A stretch of 64,000 nt of DNA from Candidatus Buchananbacteria bacterium (GTDB lineage Bacteria; Patescibacteriota; Patescibacteriia; Buchananbacterales; UBA6539), in contig JABWCG010000001.1 in assembly GCA_013359225.1 (NCBI GenBank), forward strand, positions 276,441 to 340,440, given 5' to 3'. The position numbers and the translations under genes are program-made. Within the stretch, counting starts at the first letter, position 1; every line of letters begins with the position of its first letter. Below are positions 7,595 to 19,931 of this stretch, piece after piece. The notes under the pieces were generated by a model. It made no database searches. It had not been told where the DNA came from and was given only the letters and a program-made list of their open reading frames with translations.

Positions 7595-8509
7595 ATGGCT
7601 ATCAAAACGGTAAAATCTCAAAATTTTGACTGGTACTACCTAACCGATTTTTCAAACGAGGAGTTAAACTTCTTAAAAACCAATTTCAAGTTTCACCCCT
7701 TAGATCTCAAAGACTGTGCCGGAGAAATTCGGCCCACTAAAATTGACATTTACCGAAACTACATATTTTTAGTTTTTCAAATTCCATATTTGGATAAAGT
7801 TGGAAAAAAAGTTTCTGTTAGCCAGGTTTATTTTTTCTTGGGTAAAGGATTTTTGGTGACGATTACTAAGTCGCGGATGAAAATTTTTAACAATTTTTTC
7901 TACCGGATTGTTAATAATCCAAAAGTCAAAGAAGAGGCTTTTTCCCAGGATGCCGGTTACTTGCTGTATAAAATTCTTGATTTGTTGCTTCGCAGCAGCT
8001 GGCTTTTGCCCAATTATTTGGACCAGGATATCAGACGAGTGGAGGCTGATATTGAAGAGGGCCACACCCGAAAAATTGTTTTTGAAATTGCCACTTTGCG
8101 CCGGCTAATGCTGCAACTTAAAGCGATTATCGACCCGCAAAAAATCGTCACCAACACCTTGAGCCGTTTAGACGCCAAATTTATTGACAGCGAAATGTTG
8201 GTGTATTTTGACGACTTGGACGACTTTATTGAAAAAAATATTTATATTTTAGAAAGTTATCGCGACCGCGTTTTGAGCCTATACGAAATCAACGAAGCGT
8301 TAATGTCCCACCGGACTAACTCGGTAATGAAAATCCTGACCGTTATGTCTGTGGCGTTAATGCCGTTAACCCTACTGTCTGGCATTTACGGAATGAATAT
8401 CGATTTGCCGCTGGGCAATCATCCGTTTTTCATCTGGGGATTATTTATTGGTTTGGCGGCGTTGATTCTCGGCGTTTTGTTTTATTTACGAAAAAAGGAT
8501 TGGATTTAA
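7595..8509 (+). CDS. corA: CorA-family Mg2+/Co2+ transporter.
   Basis: C-terminal two-TM region with the YGMNIDLP (GMN) signature; length about 300 aa. Confidence 0.8.
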   Translation: MAIKTVKSQNFDWYYLTDFSNEELNFLKTNFKFHPLDLKDCAGEIRPTKIDIYRNYIFLVFQIPYLDKVGKKVSVSQVYFFLGKGFLVTITKSRMKIFNNFFYRIVNNPKVKEEAFSQDAGYLLYKILDLLLRSSWLLPNYLDQDIRRVEADIEEGHTRKIVFEIATLRRLMLQLKAIIDPQKIVTNTLSRLDAKFIDSEMLVYFDDLDDFIEKNIYILESYRDRVLSLYEINEALMSHRTNSVMKILTVMSVALMPLTLLSGIYGMNIDLPLGNHPFFIWGLFIGLAALILGVLFYLRKKDWI

Positions 8510-9677: not shown

Positions 9678-11285
9678 ATGTTAAAAAAAATTCTTAATCA
9701 GGAATCAAAAAGTTTAACGTCCGCCGCGATTGTTTTAGGGGTGGCATCTTTGGTTTCCCGCCTGTTAGGAGTGCTGCGGGATCGCGTTTTGGCTGGAGAG
9801 TTTGGCGCCGGCGTTGAACTTGATATGTATTATTCGGCGTTTCGGATTCCGGATTTAGTTTTTAATTTGTTAGTTTTGGGGGCATTGTCCGCCGGATTTA
9901 TCCCGGTTTTTACCGGGTATTTAAGCAACAAGAAAAAAGCTTGGGAGCTGGTTAATAATATTTTGAATGTTTTGATCGTCGCTTTGATGCTGTTGACTAT
10001 CTTTTTAGCAATCTTCGCGCCCTGGCTGGTTAAAATAATCACCCCTGGTTTTGGTCCGGAACAGTTAAAAATCACTACGCTGCTGACTAGGATTATGTTT
10101 TTGTCGCCAATTCTACTAGGAATTTCCGGCATCTTTGGCAGCGTGTTGCAATCAATGAAGCGGTTTTTTATCTACTCCGTAGCGCCAATTCTTTATAACG
10201 TCGGTATTATTGTCGGCGCCTTGGTATTTTCGCGCTATTGGGGAATTTATGGTTTGGCCTGGGGCGTAGTCTTTGGCGCCTTGATGCATATGATTATTCA
10301 GATCATTGCGGCGTTTACTTTGGGCTATCGCTACCAGTGGCAGTTTCAAATTACCGATAAAGGGTTGATCAAAATTTTAACCATGATGGTGCCGCGAACG
10401 CTCAGTTTGATTATTGCGCAGATTAATTTATTGATTGTGACCATTATTGGTTCAACTCTAGCCGTTGGTAGCATTGCCATTTTTAACTTGGCAAACAACA
10501 TCCAAAGTTTTCCGTTGGGAATCTTTGGTGTTTCCTTTGCTATCGCGGCGTTTCCGGCGCTGTCGGAATTGGTGAAAAAGAAAAAACAGTTTATTGAAAC
10601 ATTATCAATCACCATGCGTCAAATTCTATTTTTTATTGTCCCGGCGTCCGCCTTATTGATAGTTTTGCGCGCCCAAGTAGTTCGTGTAGTGCTTGGTAGC
10701 GGTCGGTTTGACTGGGAAGACACTGTTTTAACACTTGAAACATTGTCGTTATTTTCATTCAGTCTTTTTGCTCAGGCACTAGTAATGGTTTTAGTTCGCG
10801 CCTTTTTCGCGCTGGAAGACAGTAAGACACCATTTTATACCGGCTTAGTTAACGCCTTGGCGAATATCATTTTGGCGGTGATGTTAGTTGAGCCCTTTGG
10901 CGTGGCTGGTTTGGCGATTGCGTTTTCTCTTTCAACCATTTTAAATTTAGTATTATTGCTGTTAATCCTCCATTACCGACTTGGTAAATTAGACGGCGAT
11001 AAAATTGCGCTGTCGTCAGTTAAAATTTTAGTCGCTACTTTTATGCTGGCAATTACTGCTCAGGCGATCAAATACCCGTTGGAACAAAGTTTTGGCACTC
11101 AAACGCTTGTTGGTATTGGTTTACAAACCATAGCGGCAACCACTGGTGGCCTGCTGGTTTATTTTGCCATTTCCTGGCTACTCAAAAGCGAAGAGCTTGA
11201 TATCTTAATTTCTAGCTTACGCAAGAAATTATTGCGGCGTCCGGCCATCGCCGAAGAAATTATTGAGAAAGAAAAGTTAACTTAG
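9678..11285 (+). CDS. murJ: Lipid II flippase MurJ (MviN).
   Basis: N-terminus LLGVLRDRVLAGEFGAGVELDMYYSAFRIPD is diagnostic of MurJ; 14-TM MOP-superfamily topology; 535 aa. Confidence 0.9.
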   Translation: MLKKILNQESKSLTSAAIVLGVASLVSRLLGVLRDRVLAGEFGAGVELDMYYSAFRIPDLVFNLLVLGALSAGFIPVFTGYLSNKKKAWELVNNILNVLIVALMLLTIFLAIFAPWLVKIITPGFGPEQLKITTLLTRIMFLSPILLGISGIFGSVLQSMKRFFIYSVAPILYNVGIIVGALVFSRYWGIYGLAWGVVFGALMHMIIQIIAAFTLGYRYQWQFQITDKGLIKILTMMVPRTLSLIIAQINLLIVTIIGSTLAVGSIAIFNLANNIQSFPLGIFGVSFAIAAFPALSELVKKKKQFIETLSITMRQILFFIVPASALLIVLRAQVVRVVLGSGRFDWEDTVLTLETLSLFSFSLFAQALVMVLVRAFFALEDSKTPFYTGLVNALANIILAVMLVEPFGVAGLAIAFSLSTILNLVLLLLILHYRLGKLDGDKIALSSVKILVATFMLAITAQAIKYPLEQSFGTQTLVGIGLQTIAATTGGLLVYFAISWLLKSEELDILISSLRKKLLRRPAIAEEIIEKEKLT

Positions 11286-11758
11286 TTTCTACTATTTCAG
11301 CCACCTTTTTATAATATTATTTTGTCTGACACTTTTTTAGAAAAAGTGTCCAAAAATCGTAAGCCTGGTGACAAAACTGACATAATTTTTACGCTCCCAA
11401 CGCTAGGTGTCGTAAACTCGTTGCTTGTTGCTCCTCAGACATACGACACCTTAAAGGCGCGTTGGTCACTAAAATTATGAAACGTTTTTCAAGGCTTGCC
11501 TAGATAATTAAATAATGCCGGCACTAGCAAACGTAGAGAATTTTAGTGAACAATATGACCATCCTTTTGCTTGTTTGAGGAACATAGTGACGAGTTTGCA
11601 AAAGGATAGTATTGTGAACGTTGAAAAATTCTTACAGTTTGGCTATCTGCCGGCGATTTTGGAGCCACCTTTTTACAAAGGTGGCTAAGATTTTTGCCAA
11701 AGTATCAAAACGATCACTATTGATTTTAGGCCAATTTCTTGGTATGCTAGTTTCTGTT

Positions 11759-13534
11759 ATGGACCAAAAAATAAGAAATTTTTGTATCATCGCACATATT
11801 GATCACGGCAAGTCCACACTGGCGGACCGCTTTTTAGAATTGACCAATACCATTTCCAAGCGGGAAATGAAAGAGCAGCTGCTTGATCAAATGGACATTG
11901 AACGCGAGCGGGGAATTACCATTAAGCTTCAACCGGCGCGAATGAAATGGCACGATTATGAATTAAATTTAATTGACACTCCTGGTCACGTGGACTTTAG
12001 TTATGAAGTTTCGCGCAGTTTAGCCGCAGTTGAAGGTGCGATTTTATTAGTAGACGCGTCTCAGGGTGTGCAGGCGCAAACCGTAGCCAATTTATATTTA
12101 GCGCTTGAACAGGGTTTAGAAATTATTCCCGTCTTAAATAAAATTGATTTACCAAACGCGGACGTTCCCCGAACAACTGACGAAATTTGCAAACTAACTG
12201 GCTGCAAGCCAGAAGATGTTTTGAAGGTTTCCGGCAAGACCGGGCAAGGAGTTGACTTATTGTTACAGGCGATTGTGGACCGGGTGAGCGCACCCAAAAC
12301 TAACACCAACCCCTTACGAGCTTTGGTGTTTGATTCCAACTACGACGAATATCGCGGGATTGTGGCGCAAATTCGGGTGATGGATGGTGAAATCAAGCAA
12401 GGCGATAAAATTAAATTAACTTCCACCAAAAAAGAAACAGAAGTGCTGGAAGTCGGTTACTATACGCCAAAGATGAAAAAATCTGCTTCCTTAAAGTCGG
12501 GTGAAATTGGCTATGTGGTTACCGGCTTAAAAAGCATTGAAGACTGCCGGGTTGGCGACACGGTGACATTGTTTGATACCAACGTTGAAATGTTGAAAGG
12601 CTACAAAGAAGTTAAGCCAATGGTATTTGCCGGACTGTTTTGCAAAGAAGGAAACGAATATCCGCGTTTGCGCGAAGGCATTGAAAAATTAAAGCTTAAT
12701 GACGCGGCCTTGATGTACGAACCGGAAAATTCGCAAGCCCTCGGCTTTGGTTTTCGTTGTGGTTTTTTAGGGCTGCTCCATTTGGAAGTTATTCAAGAGC
12801 GGCTCAAACGTGAATTTGGACTTGATTTGGTGGTTACTGTACCAAGCGTTGCGTATAAAATTACCAAAACTGATGGTACCGTCATCACTATTCACAGTCC
12901 GCAGGAGCTGCCATCACCGGACAAAATCAATAAAGTCGAAGAGCCGATTATGAATGTGGATATTTTTTCACCCAAAGAATACCTGGGCGGAATTATGCAG
13001 CTGGTGGCCCAAAAGCGGGGGATTTATCTAAACACTGAATATTTAGACGACAAGATTGTTGTGCTTCATTATCACATTCCTTTAACCGCCTTGCTGGTTG
13101 ATTTTTATGACAAGCTAAAAAGCATTTCTGCCGGCTATGCTTCGCTTAACTATGAATTTTTAAATTACCAAACTACGGAAGTCGTTAAACTTGATATTTT
13201 AGTGGCTGAAGAAATTGTGGAATCACTAGCCTCAATTGTCTATAAGGATGAAGCGTTTACCATCGGTAAAAAGATTGTTAATTCGCTCAAAGAAACCTTA
13301 CCGCGCCAGCAGTTCGTTTTGAAAATTCAAGCGTCGGTTGGTAGTAAAGTGATTGCCGCGGATCGATTAAGCGCTCTACGCAAGGATGTAACTGCTAAAC
13401 TCTATGGTGGTGATTACACCCGCAAACGTAAACTTCTTGAAAAACAAAAGAAGGGTAAGAAAAAGATGTTGGCGCATGGTACTGGGAAGGTTGATATTCC
13501 AACTGAAGCATTTTTGGCAGTTTTGAAGAAATAG
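11759..13534 (+). CDS. lepA: Translation elongation factor 4 (LepA).
   Basis: MDQKIRNFCIIAHIDHGKSTLADR G1 motif, DTPGHVDF G3 motif, and the LepA-specific C-terminal region. The ATG at 11759 was chosen over the upstream 11621 ORF start. Confidence 0.95.
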   Translation: MDQKIRNFCIIAHIDHGKSTLADRFLELTNTISKREMKEQLLDQMDIERERGITIKLQPARMKWHDYELNLIDTPGHVDFSYEVSRSLAAVEGAILLVDASQGVQAQTVANLYLALEQGLEIIPVLNKIDLPNADVPRTTDEICKLTGCKPEDVLKVSGKTGQGVDLLLQAIVDRVSAPKTNTNPLRALVFDSNYDEYRGIVAQIRVMDGEIKQGDKIKLTSTKKETEVLEVGYYTPKMKKSASLKSGEIGYVVTGLKSIEDCRVGDTVTLFDTNVEMLKGYKEVKPMVFAGLFCKEGNEYPRLREGIEKLKLNDAALMYEPENSQALGFGFRCGFLGLLHLEVIQERLKREFGLDLVVTVPSVAYKITKTDGTVITIHSPQELPSPDKINKVEEPIMNVDIFSPKEYLGGIMQLVAQKRGIYLNTEYLDDKIVVLHYHIPLTALLVDFYDKLKSISAGYASLNYEFLNYQTTEVVKLDILVAEEIVESLASIVYKDEAFTIGKKIVNSLKETLPRQQFVLKIQASVGSKVIAADRLSALRKDVTAKLYGGDYTRKRKLLEKQKKGKKKMLAHGTGKVDIPTEAFLAVLKK

Positions 13535-13552: not shown

Positions 13553-13591
13553 AAAGAGGTCTTAGATTCAGTTCTAGGACCTTGTTTTTTC
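13553..13591 (+). terminator. Rho-independent terminator after lepA.
   Basis: Hairpin gaggtcttaga-ttcag-ttctaggacct followed by tgtttttt. Confidence 0.75.
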
Positions 13592-13704
13592 GCTTAAAAC
13601 GAGCCGTAGCTGAACGTTTTACGCTAGTTCATGGATATTTTATAAACTTGCTTTTTGGCTTAGCTGAGAGTAAAATTTTAGGTACTATAATCAACAATAA
13701 AACT

Positions 13705-13851
13705 ATGACTGAAGAAAATTCTCTACAAAAATTTATCAAAGATCTCAAAGAACAAAGAGCAGCGTTGCTTAATGGGTATGCAGATAATCAAAGTTTAGAA
13801 AAACTTTCAGAAAATTTTGATAAAATTATTACAACAGATGAAAATAACTAA
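13705..13851 (+). CDS. Small (48 aa) predicted helical protein, translationally coupled to the downstream ATPase.
   Basis: ATG 13 nt after a TATAAT box (13687-13692). The stop codon overlaps the ATPase start (ATGAAAATAACTAA). AT-rich island composition. Confidence 0.45.
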   Translation: MTEENSLQKFIKDLKEQRAALLNGYADNQSLEKLSENFDKIITTDENN

Positions 13852-16225
13852 ACTGACAATTAACGGGTTTCGAGGCTTTAATGAGAAAGAAGTTATTGAT
13901 GTAAATAATAATATAGTTATTATTTATGGTTTAAATGGTTCTGGAAAAAGCAGTTTTACGGAGGCATTAGAATGGTTATTTTTTGACGCAATTAGTCGGC
14001 AAAGGTTATCAAGATGTAAATCTGACTACAGATATGAAGAATATTTAAAAAATGTATTTTATACAGGAAGTGAGCATCCTTTCGTTGAGGTAGAGGGAAT
14101 TTTAGATGGAAAAAACATTAAATTAAGAAAAGAGATGGCATCCGGAGGGAATAAACATTATATTGATGACATAGAAAAAGAAAATTTTAAATCACTAAAT
14201 TTAAAATTGGATGATTATTTTAGACCAATGCTAGCTCAAACAGAAATTAAATCTTTGGTAGATTCTGAGCAAAAAGATCGATGGGAACAACTATCTAGTA
14301 TCTTAGGTCAAGATAGTCTGACGAAACTGCGTGAAAGTTTAATGCAGCTAAAAAGTCAAAAACGAGATGATTCTTACAAAAGCACTGAAAGAATTTGGCA
14401 ATCTGTTGTAGTTGAAACAGAATCACTTGCTGAATTGAAATTATTAGTAGATCCTTTAAAGAAATTAGATGAAAAATCTGTTTTAGAAAAAGTTAATGAA
14501 GTTTTTGGTACAAAAGAGTTGGCCTCTTTAGAGGCGCTAGCTGAGAAGATTAAAATAAAACAAAAGGCTTCTTTAAATACAGAGGTAGGTAAAAGAGTGG
14601 CCCAAGTGAATTATCAAGAAATTAAAACAATTGAGCCATATTTAGGAGAACTTAAGTACTACGCTGAAAAATTGGAAGAATTTTCTCATCAATCAACAAA
14701 AGATGGGGTAAATCATAGACACATTAACTTTTTAAAAACAGGGTTAGAGTTTTGTAATCCACCAGAATGTCCTTATTGTACTGAAAAGACAATCACAGAA
14801 CAAAAGATTAAAAATATAGAAGACACTATCCATAAAGCTAAAGATGCTAGTAAAGCGATGGAAAGCATAGACGAAAATAAAAAACTTTTAGAAATTTGGG
14901 AGTCTGGATTAGCGTCAGAAGTAGAGAAAATTTTTCCAGATCGACGAGAACTTAAATTAATCTCACAAAATTTAATGAGTTTGCAAGAGATTGATTTGGC
15001 GGCATTAGTTCAGGGACTAGAAAAAGATATTGATAGCTATAAGTTAGAAATTAAAAAGTTTGTTATTACACAGAAGGGTGCTTTGTATTCATATTTACGA
15101 AATAAATATTTTGTTTCAGGATCAACTGATGATGTGTACCCGGAAGATCTTGATAAGGTCGTAGGCTTTGTTGAGGATAAATTCATTCATGCTAATCAAA
15201 GATGGAACGAAATAAAAATTAAAATTACTGAAAAACTGCCAAATTTTGGAGAAGATGACACTGCAGAGATAAAAAAATGGTTTGTTTTAGAAAAAATTGT
15301 AAAGTTTTTTTACAACAATAAAAAATTTATTAAAAAAACAAAGTTACTGGACGTAGTAGAAAAGTTAAGATTAGACTTAGAAAATTATGAAAAATCAGAG
15401 GTTGACAGACTTCTGCAGGAACATTCTGAAGAAATCAAAAGTTACTATGACTCTTTGAATCCTAATGATGATGTAAAATTTTCAAAGATAGAAGTTGGTG
15501 ATGGCGTAAGAAGACAAGCAAAACTAAAAGGAGAGGCTTATGGCCAGGATATTAATCCTGTAACATTTTTCAGTGAAGCGCACACTAACAGTCTTGCTTT
15601 AAGTATTTACTTTCCACAAAGAGTTGACAGAAATACTACTTGGAATACGGTTGTTTTAGACGACCCTGTTCAATCAATGGACGAGAATCATTCACACGCT
15701 TTATTAAAAATATTATCAGATATCTCGGAAAAAAAACAAATTATAATTTTAACTCACTCAAAATCTTTTGCTAGGAAAGCCTCAGCATTATTTTCTCATA
15801 AAAATCCTTTAGGGTATTCATTTTATTACAATGATAAAAAGGGTCCTAAGGTAGAAATAAACAATGCAGAAACACTTACATATTTAGATAGGGCAGAAGA
15901 TCAAGCTAAAAAGGGAGATCCGAAGTCACTAGAAGAAGCTTCTCAAAATTTAAGAAAGTCTATAGAATCTCTATGTTTTGAATTTCTTATATCAAAAGGA
16001 GTAGGATTTAATACAGCTAAGAAAAAACAAGAAGAGGGGCTTAAAACTTTATTTTCAGTCTCGGAAAGTAATGGTCTTCCTTCTAGTGAGATTAGTAAGA
16101 TGAAAAGTTTTCTAGATACCTCGCATGCTAACTCTCATGCATGGAGTGTCGCAGACACAACTCCCGGAGGTGTTAACCTAGGAATAAAAGAAATGCGAGG
16201 GATTTATTCTACTTATTTAGCATAA
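13838..16225 (+). CDS. Rad50/SMC-like ABC ATPase with a coiled-coil zinc hook and a C-terminal ~140-aa domain; candidate RloC-like anticodon nuclease or defense ATPase.
   Basis: MKITKLTINGFRGF...IIYGLNGSGKSS Walker A. Long K/E-rich coiled coil containing CNPPECPYC (CxxC hook). Degenerate signature FSEAHTNSLALSIYF, Walker B/D-loop VVLDDPVQSMD, H-loop IILTHSK. About 30% GC versus about 42% in the flanks. Confidence 0.6.
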   Translation: MKITKLTINGFRGFNEKEVIDVNNNIVIIYGLNGSGKSSFTEALEWLFFDAISRQRLSRCKSDYRYEEYLKNVFYTGSEHPFVEVEGILDGKNIKLRKEMASGGNKHYIDDIEKENFKSLNLKLDDYFRPMLAQTEIKSLVDSEQKDRWEQLSSILGQDSLTKLRESLMQLKSQKRDDSYKSTERIWQSVVVETESLAELKLLVDPLKKLDEKSVLEKVNEVFGTKELASLEALAEKIKIKQKASLNTEVGKRVAQVNYQEIKTIEPYLGELKYYAEKLEEFSHQSTKDGVNHRHINFLKTGLEFCNPPECPYCTEKTITEQKIKNIEDTIHKAKDASKAMESIDENKKLLEIWESGLASEVEKIFPDRRELKLISQNLMSLQEIDLAALVQGLEKDIDSYKLEIKKFVITQKGALYSYLRNKYFVSGSTDDVYPEDLDKVVGFVEDKFIHANQRWNEIKIKITEKLPNFGEDDTAEIKKWFVLEKIVKFFYNNKKFIKKTKLLDVVEKLRLDLENYEKSEVDRLLQEHSEEIKSYYDSLNPNDDVKFSKIEVGDGVRRQAKLKGEAYGQDINPVTFFSEAHTNSLALSIYFPQRVDRNTTWNTVVLDDPVQSMDENHSHALLKILSDISEKKQIIILTHSKSFARKASALFSHKNPLGYSFYYNDKKGPKVEINNAETLTYLDRAEDQAKKGDPKSLEEASQNLRKSIESLCFEFLISKGVGFNTAKKKQEEGLKTLFSVSESNGLPSSEISKMKSFLDTSHANSHAWSVADTTPGGVNLGIKEMRGIYSTYLA

Positions 16226-16235
16226 GTAGGTGTTT

Positions 16236-16298
16236 AAACTAGACATCCAATGGTCTAGTAATGAAAATCAAAAAAACCGGGATTAATTCCGGTTTTTA
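16236..16298. terminator. Bidirectional terminator pair between convergent genes.
   Basis: Palindrome ctagacatccaatggtctag, then aaaaaaccgggattaattccggttttt (GC stem flanked by A and T runs). Confidence 0.75.
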
Positions 16299-16329
16299 AA
16301 AATTAATAAATAAATTTTAGATGGTTATA

Positions 16330-16587
16330 TTACTTATTCTCTAAAATCCAACTCTGACATTTTTTAGCCCAACTGATCGGCATCTTCTCAGAAGCAAGCT
16401 CGACACCTCGTCCGATAATTTTTAGATTACTCTCGCCCCAACCTTTAACATCAATTGTCACTGTTTCAATATCATTAATCGGCACACGAAAAGTTCGACC
16501 ATAAGGATGTTGATAGTTTAAAAAACCATTTTCCATTTTTAGAGTTCCACCGGCACCGAAAGCTAGCCGTAAAATCTTTTTGTCCAT
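16330..16587 (-). CDS. Hypothetical small protein (85 aa), possibly PH-like.
   Basis: Clean ORF convergent on the terminator; no motif recognised. Confidence 0.5.
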   Translation of the reverse strand: MDKKILRLAFGAGGTLKMENGFLNYQHPYGRTFRVPINDIETVTIDVKGWGESNLKIIGRGVELASEKMPISWAKKCQSWILENK

Positions 16588-16666: not shown

Positions 16667-16771
16667 TTAGTAAAAAGCCGGGCCGATGGTCCAAATAATC
16701 ATTGAAATAGTAATCATCAACACCAAAACAAACCAGATGATTTTTTTAAGTTTTTCGTGTCTTTTTGCCAT
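16667..16771 (-). CDS. Possible 34-aa single-TM micropeptide (MAKRHEKLKKIIWFVLVLMITISMIIWTIGPAFY).
   Basis: Manually read ORF upstream of the 85-aa gene on the same strand; no clear SD. Confidence 0.2.
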   Translation of the reverse strand: MAKRHEKLKKIIWFVLVLMITISMIIWTIGPAFY

Positions 16772-16830: not shown

Positions 16831-18546
16831 ATGTCTGAAATGAATTGGCAGGTTGCTGCCGCCGTCCCTAAAGAGTTTAGCGATAAATTCCCGGAAATTA
16901 ACCCGATTGTTTTACAGCTGCTCTATAACCGCGGCATTAAAACGCAAGAAGCGGTTGACGAGTTTTTAAACCCTGATTATGGTGCTGATATCCATAGTCC
17001 TTTTTTATTTCGGGATATGGAAAAAGCGGTGACTAGAATTTTACAGGCTGTTGAGGAAAAGGAAAAAATCGTTGTCTATGGCGATTACGACGCCGACGGT
17101 GTCTCATCTTCGGCGGTGATGGTAGAAACCCTCGCCAAGCTTGGTGCGGACGTGGACGTCTATATCCCGTACCGTGAAACGGAAGGCTACGGTTTAAATA
17201 AAGAAGCCGTATTAGAACTTTCAAAGCGAGGAGTGAGCCTGGTGATTACGGTTGATTGCGGCATTTCTAATGTTGAAGAAGTCAGGCTCTTAAACGAAAA
17301 CCATATTGATATTATTATTACTGATCATCATCATGAACCGCCAACATTGCCGGAAGCGTTTGCAATCATCAATCCAAACGTGGCGGCTGAAACCTACCCG
17401 TTTCGCAGTTTGGCTGGTGTTGGTGTGGCATTTAAAGTCGCTCAGGGTTTAGTGTTAAGACACAAAAATTTTAAAGTCACGCCCATTCCCGAGGGGTGGG
17501 AAAAATGGCTTTTGGATTTGGTGGCTATTGGCACCATTGCTGACTTGCAGTTGCTGCTTGGTGAAAACCGCACGTTAGTCAATTATGGTTTAGTGGTACT
17601 GCGAAAAACCAATCGGCTTGGTCTGCGTGAGTTGCTTAAATCTACCAATGCTGATTTAGCAAGCGTGGACGAGCAAGTCATTGGCTGGCAAATTTCACCG
17701 CGCCTGAATGCGGCCGGCCGGCTTAATCATGCCAGTTCGGCATATCAGTTGTTAATCACGCAAAGCCCGGAAGAAGCGTTAAAACTTACCCAGGAATTAA
17801 ACCAGACTAATCAGGAACGCCAGCAGCTGACCGAAAAAGTAAAAACGGAAGCTCGTGAAGTCTTAGGACAATTTAACGGCGAGAAAATTTTGATTGCCGT
17901 CGGTAAAAATTGGCCGACCGGTGTGGTTGGGCTCGTTGCTGGGCGCATTACCGATCAATGGCACCGTCCGGCGCTGGTAATTAGTCACTATAATGGCGAA
18001 ATTATCGGCTCAGGCCGCAGTATTGCGGAATTTAACATTATTGAGGCTTTGGATGAATGCCGGGAATATCTGGCCCGTTATGGCGGCCATGCCCAGGCCT
18101 GCGGTTTCACTGTTAAAGACGAAGCTAATCTAAAGCTGTTTATTGAAAAAATCAAAACACTGGCCGAAACCCAGCTGGCCGGAAAAGACATTGCCAAGTC
18201 GCTTTTTATTGATGCCCAAGTTGAACTTGAAAATGTTGATTGGCACTTGTTTGAACAATTAGAAAAGTTTTTTCCGCATGGTGTCGGCAACTATAAGCCC
18301 CGGTTTGTGGCGCACGATTTAAACATCAAAGAAATTCAAACCGTTGGCAAAGACGGTCGGCATTTGCGTCTGATGGTCCAGCATAAAACTCAAATCATCC
18401 GCAAAACAATCGGGTTTACATTTGGTGAATGGCGGGATAAACTTAAACCCGGAGATAAAATTGACATGGTGTTTGAGGTTGATGTCAACGAATGGAATGG
18501 TAATCGTGAATTGCAGCTAAAAATTATTGATTTAAAATCAAAATGA
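16831..18546 (+). CDS. recJ: Single-stranded-DNA-specific exonuclease RecJ.
   Basis: DHH phosphoesterase motifs (VYGDYDADGVSS, IITDHHH), a DHHA1 region, and a C-terminal OB-like domain; 571 aa. Confidence 0.9.
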   Translation: MSEMNWQVAAAVPKEFSDKFPEINPIVLQLLYNRGIKTQEAVDEFLNPDYGADIHSPFLFRDMEKAVTRILQAVEEKEKIVVYGDYDADGVSSSAVMVETLAKLGADVDVYIPYRETEGYGLNKEAVLELSKRGVSLVITVDCGISNVEEVRLLNENHIDIIITDHHHEPPTLPEAFAIINPNVAAETYPFRSLAGVGVAFKVAQGLVLRHKNFKVTPIPEGWEKWLLDLVAIGTIADLQLLLGENRTLVNYGLVVLRKTNRLGLRELLKSTNADLASVDEQVIGWQISPRLNAAGRLNHASSAYQLLITQSPEEALKLTQELNQTNQERQQLTEKVKTEAREVLGQFNGEKILIAVGKNWPTGVVGLVAGRITDQWHRPALVISHYNGEIIGSGRSIAEFNIIEALDECREYLARYGGHAQACGFTVKDEANLKLFIEKIKTLAETQLAGKDIAKSLFIDAQVELENVDWHLFEQLEKFFPHGVGNYKPRFVAHDLNIKEIQTVGKDGRHLRLMVQHKTQIIRKTIGFTFGEWRDKLKPGDKIDMVFEVDVNEWNGNRELQLKIIDLKSK

Positions 18547-19335: not shown

Positions 19336-19712
19336 TGTCTAAGCAAATCGATAAGCCGAATTTTGTACCGCGCTTGAAAGCGTGGTGATGGTCATCTATC
19401 TAGGCCATTTGTCGCCAAATGACTCAAGCTGCCTACCTAATTTGGCATTGCACCTGGTAGGTGTTTACCACACCGACTGTTACCAGTCAGACGTGCGTGG
19501 GCTCTTACCCCACGATTTCAACCTTACCGGTCGCAACGAGTGCGACTTGGGCGGTATATTTTCTGTTGCACTTGCCCTAGGCTTCGCAACAGAATAGAAG
19601 CCTTAAGAACTTCTACTCTTTTACTTATTCCCGGCTCCCGTTAGGAGCTACCTTTTGTAATGGTGTTCGGACTTTCCTCCCTCCACATGAAAACGCACCG
19701 TCTTGTTATTTG
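19330..19712 (-). ncRNA. rnpB: RNase P RNA (bacterial type).
   Basis: On the minus strand: GGAGGGAGGAAAGUCCGAACACC (P4 5' strand consensus GAGGAAAGUCCGGGCUCC), GGUAAGAGCCCACGCAC, and ACAAAAUUCGGCUUAUCG (P4 3' strand consensus ACARAAYYCGGCUUAUCG). Ends are approximate. Confidence 0.85.
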
Positions 19713-19931
19713 CCGTAAAAAATCTGTATAACTTTTGGTATTACTGTTCTATTTCTTCGAAATAAACCGTACCTGCATCTTTTACCAGTAAATTTGCCAA
19801 TGCGCTTTCAGGTGGAGGGCGACCATCTAATTTACTTAGACTAAAATAGACTAGCACAAATTTACTGACTTGTCAAGTTTAGTTGATTTTCAACCCCATT
19901 TTTGCTATGCTAAACGCTAGAAACTAGACTT

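Follow-up and report, generated by a model that had tools for sequence, protein, structure and literature searches.

Between lepA and recJ in a 64-kb stretch of contig JABWCG010000001.1 from Candidatus Buchananbacteria (the whole stretch being referred to here as the window) lie two coupled open reading frames (ORFs), of 48 and 795 amino acids (aa). On balance they probably constitute a mobile two-gene abortive-infection or defense module in which a RloC-like layout is combined with a LmuB-like ATPase and an obligate micro-partner. Most likely the cassette is related to two anti-phage systems, RloC and Lamassu, and has so far gone undescribed; it is sparsely present across bacteria and archaea, and it is genomic context and homology that point to a role in defense. 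An earlier note on this DNA had put forward a RloC-type nuclease with, as its alternative, an uncharacterised two-component module, and the latter is the best fit. No description of the pair was found in searchable literature, though an earlier mention is possible, since the literature on ABC-ATPase classification was covered only in part.

The larger gene (13838-16225, + strand; 795 aa from its ATG) encodes what is, by its sequence, a Rad50/SMC-type zinc-hook protein, as had been proposed, with binding of zinc being predicted. Its top Pfam match is SMC_N (1.6e-15), followed by AAA_13, AAA_23 and AAA_15, its sequence matches in the PDB are SMC and Rad50 heads, and Foldseek comparison of its AlphaFold2 model (39 homologues; mean predicted local distance difference test, pLDDT, 84.8) with the PDB puts Rad50 first (7zr1, E 1e-14) and then SMC, cohesin and condensin heads, with Salmonella LmuB (9hqu) at rank 36. 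In the model the head N-lobe (residues 1-133; 13838-14236, with Walker A GLNGSGKSS at 13922-13954) is followed by helices (134-305), a loop carrying CPYC (306-320), further helices (321-540), the head C-lobe (546-675, within residues 541-677; 15458-15868) and a C-terminal helical domain (678-793). The coiled-coil-type insert (residues 134-540; 14237-15457), which starts with the Q-loop LAQTE and has residues 306-320 as its hook loop, contains 13.5% K and 12.3% E. The C-lobe has a degenerate signature, FSEAHTNSL (FSEAHTNSLALS, 15566-15607), a Walker B/D-loop (VVLDDPVQSMDE, 15644-15685) and an H-loop, LTHS (15743-15763), all of these being on the + strand. The motifs that the earlier note had named, including the R-x3-E and His of the tail, are each where it had placed them. 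Its coiled coil is also there in the form of a helical insert, but of about 407 aa and not the roughly 500 aa claimed, and of the hook CNPPECPYC, which is present, the CxxC formed by C311 and C314 is conserved but C306, of CNPPEC, is not.

Conservation was gauged on 179 full-length family members taken from a profile search of 1.84 billion representatives. K37, C311, S579, D608, D609 and D615 are each kept in 179 of the 179, C314 in 178, P312 and Q134 in 177 apiece and H640 in 167; the CPYC motif itself (C311, P312, C314; 14768-14779, +) is invariant in family alignment A1. The window copy is full length with every conserved ATPase and hook residue, and such residues are, at the level of sequence, signs of a working ATPase and a working hook.

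A protein of this type could be of the housekeeping kind, an SMC-like protein of DNA repair or chromosome maintenance (such as SbcC, RecN or RecF) whose helical tail is non-catalytic. Some homologues do carry the names 'DNA repair exonuclease SbcCD ATPase subunit' or RecF (the NCBI label of the identical protein is 'AAA family ATPase'), there are weak NCBIfam matches to RecF, SMC and Rad50, and Rad50 is the best structural match. However, the NCBIfam equivalog scores are far under their cut-offs (RecF 31.9 vs 172, SMC 29.5 vs 567, Rad50 23.6-23.7 vs at least 1000), because of which the ATPase is not considered an orthologue of any of them. There is no gene for an Mre11/SbcD phosphoesterase partner in the island between lepA and recJ, the gene is absent from that locus in close relatives, its composition is anomalous, and its tail has a HEPN fold with an invariant R and H. 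With only 22 of the 185,579 species representatives having it, dispersed among at least nine phyla, a housekeeping role can be given very little credence.

The tail just mentioned (residues 678-795 plus the stop codon; 15869-16225, +) was recognised as HEPN by fold comparison only, a search with its profile against PDB sequences giving no significant match. R706-x3-E710 (LRKSIES, 15950-15970, +) is on the long second helix and S766-H767 (within 16124-16147, +) directly precedes the last helix, so that the pattern reads R-x3-E-x56-(S)H. Among the 179 members R706 is kept in 176, H767 in 177, E710 in 132 and S766 in 95, and in 34 diverse tails (alignment A4) R and H are invariant with E at least 90% conserved. 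RloC is defined by Arg-X3-Glu-X36-52-His, often with Ser before the His, and in the Geobacillus protein R692, E696 and H737 are each essential for activity (PMC2610378). The tail is a HEPN domain with RloC/PrrC-like, non-canonical residues that are candidates for catalysis. A distant member on Phaeobacter plasmid pP88_b (L029, 3549-6002; 817 aa, with a CPKC hook) has, past its HEPN-like region, an additional Cys-rich C-terminal extension, CAQCDDCGSW...CSCN, that looks like a zinc ribbon.

The small gene (13705-13851, +; 48 aa, MTEENS...DENN) has its stop codon 14 nucleotides (nt) inside the ATPase gene, the overlap being ATGAAAATAACTAA, in agreement with the earlier description of a stop that overlaps the ATPase start. 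The encoded protein is acidic, with a hydrophobic pattern suggestive of three short helices. The proposal that it is a coupled partner is borne out by its retention: 27 of 28 distinct loci, ranging from 27% to about 65% GC and from bacteria to archaea, have a small ORF overlapping the ATPase start, among them loci of Bathyarchaeia, Aenigmatarchaeota, high-GC Solirubrobacterales and Chloroflexi, and also plasmid loci of Phaeobacter, Nitrosospira and Bradyrhizobium, in which it is annotated 'hypothetical protein'. In the only locus without one (L022), the ATPase start is N-terminally truncated or unresolved. The equivalents are of about 45-66 aa, and their overlap with the ATPase gene ranges from 4 nt (L001, L029) to 29 nt (L030, L031), being 11 nt in most loci and, as stated, 14 nt in the window. 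Common to them are an acidic end and the hydrophobic pattern L..F...L / ..LL..Y / (S)L(S)..FD.LL (alignment A3), and their identity to the window copy is 25-38% where that of the ATPases is 39-52%. The small protein is a real, fast-evolving and obligate partner. Pfam, NCBIfam, PADLOC and PHROGs yielded no match to it, and a profile search of the PDB gave matches at chance level only.

As had been claimed, the two genes are in an AT-rich segment. Nowhere in the 64 kb is GC lower than in the 2.4-kb interval that begins at 13601, where it is 0.308 (mean 0.412, sd 0.028), and GC at third codon positions (GC3), at 0.14 for the small ORF and 0.215 for the ATPase gene, is well below that of neighboring genes (lepA 0.43, recJ 0.45; 0.43-0.46 when murJ is included). 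The left edge of the segment is a terminator-like hairpin after lepA (13556-13583, +; an 11-pair stem and then a T-run), immediately past which GC falls from 0.38-0.43 to 0.28-0.32. Beyond the ATPase gene a second such hairpin (16272-16297, AAAAACCGG...CCGGTTTTT) is bidirectional and is common to that gene and a convergent ORF of 85 aa. These hairpins, and a TATAAT box at 13686-13691, correspond to the terminators and box of the earlier note. The box belongs to a promoter-like site, CTGAGA-16 nt-TATAAT (13664-13691, +), 13 nt upstream of the small ORF; with 10 of 12 consensus matches it is the best of the region, though its -35 element is weak and the number of such sites in the region is not above that in shuffled sequence.

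When RecJ homologues (84%, 67% and 66% identity) were followed to their contigs (L032, L033 and L034), the order murJ-lepA-gap-recJ-RNase H gene was found to be kept in two of these relatives (L033, L034), with the gap occupied by other genes. In L033 (2122-5909) it holds a DpnI-like fragment, a 23S_rRNA_IVP protein and small ORFs, and in L034 (4465-5604) a NUDIX gene and an ORF of no recognised family. Upstream of recJ in the closest relative, L032 (324-6068), are a methylase, a ResIII helicase, a PD-(D/E)XK protein and an FtsK fragment; that contig stops before lepA, so its gap is seen only from the recJ side. None of the three relatives examined has the module or remnants of it in the region upstream of recJ, which disposes of the possibility that all relatives carry the pair there. 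Because relatives hold different genes in it, the gap is viewed as a hotspot with exchangeable cargo, and it behaves as an integration hotspot for variable genes, some of them of defense type. No convincing attachment-site-like repeats were found in a search of the island's flanks, and no tRNA or other RNA genes at the insertion site. The methylase and helicase genes of L032 (324-4356) are homologous (44-50% and 34% identity) to a pair in an Omnitrophota locus, L001 (1987-5831), which there sits directly upstream of the module; module and restriction-modification-like methylase-helicase pair may travel in the same element pool.

The nearest ATPase homologues, of about 52% identity, are in other phyla. 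Because of this, the extreme composition, and absence from the gap of the three closest relatives found, the cassette is considered horizontally acquired. The earlier suggestion of a horizontally acquired defense island thus holds in its first part, on composition, relatives and distant homologues alike, whereas its second part, function in defense, is not established.

The wider family comprises 448 clusters at 50% identity (E < 1e-30). An all-against-all comparison of neighbors in 24 loci revealed no conserved third gene, with the ATPase itself and, in four loci, large serine recombinases being what recurs. Several loci have the module in the company of defense genes: adjacent type III restriction-modification (R-M) genes (L001, L011), an EcoRI-type methylase with GmrSD (L005), a methylase (L014), a McrBC component (L024) or AbiE (L031). 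Elsewhere its neighbors are a LexA-like repressor (L009), a reverse transcriptase with DUF2779 (L007), a rolling-circle replication protein (L010), a TraG-like coupling protein (L003), or insertion sequence elements on conjugative plasmids (L029, L031). In 13 of 15 loci GC is lower inside the module than beside it. Disruption of the ATPase gene, by splitting or frameshift, is seen in three loci (L012, 286-2694; L028, 7962-9796; L031, 4001-6432), which would fit a gene that is costly or toxic. In the last of these, the ATPase is annotated as two coding sequences of about 400 aa with the break after the hook, and the small upstream ORF stays open.

A toxic gene with a small coupled companion brings to mind addiction of plasmids or other mobile elements, with the small protein as a labile antitoxin against a HEPN toxin and the ATPase being only regulatory. 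A small gene overlapping a larger HEPN gene is the classic type II toxin-antitoxin layout, the module's presence on conjugative plasmids and beside recombinases is as expected of such a cassette, and the three disrupted ATPase genes are what a costly toxin would leave. Yet an 800-aa zinc-hook ATPase with fully conserved catalytic residues exceeds the needs of addiction. Sequence searches of Pfam, NCBIfam and the PDB detected no DNA-binding domain in the small protein, and therefore there is no sign of autoregulation. Addiction in its pure form is accordingly quite improbable, with the qualification that it overlaps with the defense reading since many such cassettes also defend.

How a defense module so composed might work can be sketched by analogy. 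Two copies of the ATPase may join at the CPxC zinc hook, as with Rad50, RloC and LmuB, and their heads would engage on ATP binding when foreign or broken DNA is encountered. HEPN RNases act as dimers, and therefore engagement or disengagement of the heads would unite two HEPN domains, or release them. Once paired, these might cleave RNA, possibly tRNA anticodon loops, by means of R706, E710 and H767, with the cessation of translation and arrest of the infected cell as the presumed outcome. The 48-aa protein, whose fixed proportion to the ATPase is due to the overlap of stop and start codons, most likely has the ATPase as its binding partner. It may keep the nuclease inactive until triggering occurs, as a silencer or antitoxin, or alternatively be a minimal adaptor occupying the position that LmuC and the SbcD C-terminal domain (CTD) have before LmuB and SbcC; we have no preference between the two. 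The cassette carrying all this would have arrived horizontally in the lepA-recJ hotspot.

Several observations weigh against the foregoing, and are best considered together. The canonical HEPN Rx4-6H is absent, there being no conserved Arg 4-6 residues before H767, and therefore the domain could be one that binds and does not cut; in one subclade E710 has become A or G. (According to a survey of HEPN proteins, there are families with the His retained in which a different conserved basic residue may stand in for the Arg of the motif (PMC3710099).) As for the small protein, no similarity to any antitoxin was detected. Derivation of it from the SbcD C-terminal domain was tried and rejected, with hhalign giving 0.1% probability against the E. 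coli SbcD C-terminus, as was derivation from LmuC, with 0.2% against three Lamassu middle-component-1 proteins; because these comparisons gave nothing, the tie to LmuC or SbcD is left as one of positional analogy alone. Around the module in L015, L017, L018 and L027 there are no recognisable defense genes. Neither does anything link it directly to phage, no IMG/VR contig and no GenBank phage having it; lack of carriage by phages is in itself neutral for defense.

A more ambitious version, which we regard as a tentative possibility, is that of a distinct system, widespread but rare, that links RloC and Lamassu through an ATPase of the SbcC/LmuB lineage, a RloC-type HEPN domain and a gate of about 50 aa. 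The HEPN domain would then be carried independently or ancestrally by an ATPase of that lineage. There would be a third mode of silencing, beside the R-M silencer of PrrC and the internal switch of RloC, and the micro-protein could itself sense the invader, for example by being displaced or degraded. Were this so, systems of SMC-based immunity would gain a compact two-gene member and a bridge between Lamassu, with its separate effector and sensing of DNA ends, and RloC, with its fused HEPN anticodon nuclease, that helps to explain the repeated wiring of Rad50-like sensors to different effectors. The 48-aa partner would provide a tractable handle on silencing and release of self-toxic ABC-HEPN nucleases, and a defense-type cassette and a lepA-recJ integration hotspot would be documented for Candidatus Buchananbacteria, of the Patescibacteria group. 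The family of 448 clusters probably goes unrecognised at present because its members are annotated 'AAA family ATPase' and PADLOC gives LmuB-type matches without LmuA or LmuC.

The surroundings of the module in the window merit brief description. The genes murJ (9678-11285), lepA (11621-13534, +), recJ (16831-18546) and that for RNase H are all in the same direction. The mechanical lepA ORF of 637 aa starts at TTG 11621, with the likely start being 11759: the LepA proteins of the relatives have 591-592 aa, and it is with the ATG there that the conserved N-terminus MDQKIRNF begins, the first 46 codons of the mechanical ORF probably having no translation. Convergent with the ATPase gene is the 85-aa ORF already mentioned (16330-16587, -; GC3 0.31), for which there are weak matches to phrog_32788 (E 0.0018) and Pfam DUF903 (E 0.18). 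It was found neither in the lepA-recJ gaps of the relatives nor beside the module at other loci, and is probably separate hotspot cargo outside the module, with the variable segment probably extending to about 16600 to take it in. Outside that segment, and part of the conserved neighborhood of recJ from which it diverges, is a hydrophobic ORF of 34 aa (MAKRHEKLKKIIWFVLVLMITISMIIWTIGPAFY, 16667-16771, -). It is kept upstream of recJ in three of three relatives (in L032 with 71% identity over 35 aa) and has the appearance of a genuine core-genome gene for a small membrane protein. Downstream of the recJ-RNase H-rhodanese block is a bacterial RNase P RNA of class A (19339-19713, -; 185 bits). The four tRNA genes of the window are at 42-49 kb, none being near the island.

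From the perspective of known systems, the module stands closest to RloC and Lamassu without being a demonstrated member of either: of RloC because the canonical HEPN motif is missing, the hidden Markov model (HMM) match is marginal and RloC has no partner, and of Lamassu because there is no LmuA and, in sequence, nothing ties the upstream protein to LmuC. The likeness to RloC, a comparison made with published descriptions and HMM profiles, is foremost one of layout. Both have a single chain of some 800 aa in which head N-lobe, coiled coil with CxxC hook, head C-lobe and HEPN-type domain succeed each other, with Arg-x3-Glu and then, tens of residues on, (Ser)-His, and both show lateral spread with occasional R-M linkage. 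The ABC ATPase motifs of RloC (Walker A, Q-loop, signature, Walker B/D-loop and switch His) all have counterparts, as does its ATPase-splitting coiled-coil insert with central hook, with CPxC in at least 177 of the 179 members. It is this layout, together with the R-x3-E...(S)H of the HEPN tail, that stands from the earlier claim of a RloC-type protein; membership of the RloC family is not established, LmuB being the best match in 39 of 39 members.

The strongest form of that claim would be that the gene is an orthologue of rloC that has diverged, encoding a tRNA anticodon nuclease that acts on its own and excises the wobble nucleotide, with the upstream ORF being incidental or a translational leader. 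The score of the window protein for Pfam PF13166 AAA_13, which we take to hold PrrC and RloC, passes the gathering cut-off (42.7 bits vs 36), with the match running through R706-E710, and the few loci beside R-M genes have parallels among rloC genes. The landmarks of the Geobacillus kaustophilus protein, C291, R692, E696 and H737, are in the same order as C311, R706, E710 and H767 of the present one, whose 795 aa are within the 658-897 aa of RloC orthologues (PMC2610378). However, AAA_13 is matched over only profile positions 511-652 of 713 and with a lower score than SMC_N (57.6 bits), and ten more distant family members are at or below threshold (36.1 bits or less, or none), with what matching there is being mainly around Walker A or Walker B. 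For each of the 39 aligned members the top PADLOC match is LmuB (best E 4.4e-42; for the window protein PDLC03865 at 4.6e-33 and PDLC03859 at 2.6e-24), while PrrC reaches only 4.3e-5, over the Walker B region. The spacing of 56 from R-E to H is outside the published 36-52, and the PrrC/RloC row of Table 1 in the HEPN survey lists Rx4-6H, which the present family lacks (PMC3710099). The small ORF, conserved at the protein level in nearly all loci, contrasts with published accounts of RloC as governed by an internal switch and encoded by a gene that stands alone and spreads without a dedicated partner or external silencer (PMC3458546). A further difference is that the present family is also in archaea and in bacteria of candidate phyla. 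RloC orthology is, on these counts, unlikely.

Lamassu has the closer ATPase. The resemblance is chiefly to long LmuB, as found by tblastn in plasmid operons annotated 'ABC-three component system protein' and 'middle component 1' with an ATPase of about 1050 aa. Those plasmid LmuB proteins have a CPLC hook at the equivalent apex, an FS.AQ.N.LSLS signature (common to both families as SxxxxNxL, or FS.A..N.L.LS) and DDPVQSMD, and an hhalign comparison of family profile A1 with LmuB of Shewanella plasmid pS19501 gave 97.7% probability (E 1.3e-12). Plasmids and defense islands are habitats of both, and in both the ATPase gene starts within the end of the gene upstream of it, with 11 nt a frequent overlap, in the manner of the Lamassu middle component. 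Middle component 1 overlaps LmuB by 11 nt in L036 (732-742) and L037 (819-829), and most loci of the present family have the same overlap (e.g. 8001-8011). The upstream proteins of both end in ...EN/HE because the conserved ATPase start, M-K/R-I/L, forces it, and the overlap may be a trace of a common operon junction, or coincidence.

Such similarities would also be expected of a reduced Lamassu (ABC-3C) in which the effector has become fused to the LmuB C-terminus, LmuC has shrunk to about 50 aa, and sensing of DNA ends, as known for LmuB (PMC12663957), is retained. That LmuC, in a published model, descends from the part of SbcD that immediately precedes SbcC, its C-terminal domain (PMC12663957), would provide a rationale for the position of the small gene. 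Against it, there is no LmuA: the island has no further + strand gene, no PADLOC LmuA match was found for the small ORF, the 85-aa ORF or the tail, and no LmuA-like gene is conserved in the 24 loci. Described Lamassu effectors are separate and are released from the complex, and a HEPN domain fused to the ATPase C-terminus cannot work in that way; the plasmid LmuB proteins stop right past the head, without a tail. The upstream protein is of about 50 aa and not the approximately 180 aa of LmuC, to which, as the hhalign values above indicate, it has no sequence similarity, and the ATPase is some 800 aa against about 1050 aa. Descent by such reduction is therefore improbable, to much the same degree as RloC orthology.

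With SbcCD and Mre11-Rad50 the module shares head fold, zinc hook and coiled coil, and an upstream gene that runs into the ATPase gene (by 4 nt in the case of E. coli sbcD and sbcC). It differs in having no Mre11/SbcD nuclease, much shorter arms and an added HEPN tail, and in being patchy and mobile instead of housekeeping. The PADLOC candidate PDC-S06 is of like size (about 690-860 aa) and matches in head regions at E 1e-11 to 3e-18, but the similarity is limited to motifs of the ATPase head and is exceeded by that to LmuB, PDC-S06 being an uncharacterised single-gene AAA ATPase candidate. A small upstream gene translationally coupled to a larger one is, as considered above, a feature in common with type II toxin-antitoxin pairs. 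PrrC is half the size and has no coiled-coil or hook insert, its gene is inside a type Ic hsd locus (no hsd genes are in the window island), and its silencer is the EcoprrI R-M enzyme and not a dedicated micro-protein. Nevertheless PrrC, too, is an ABC ATPase that regulates a C-terminal HEPN nuclease with an R-x3-E...H triad, and the restraint of that nuclease by an external protein is a possible analogy for the role of the small partner.

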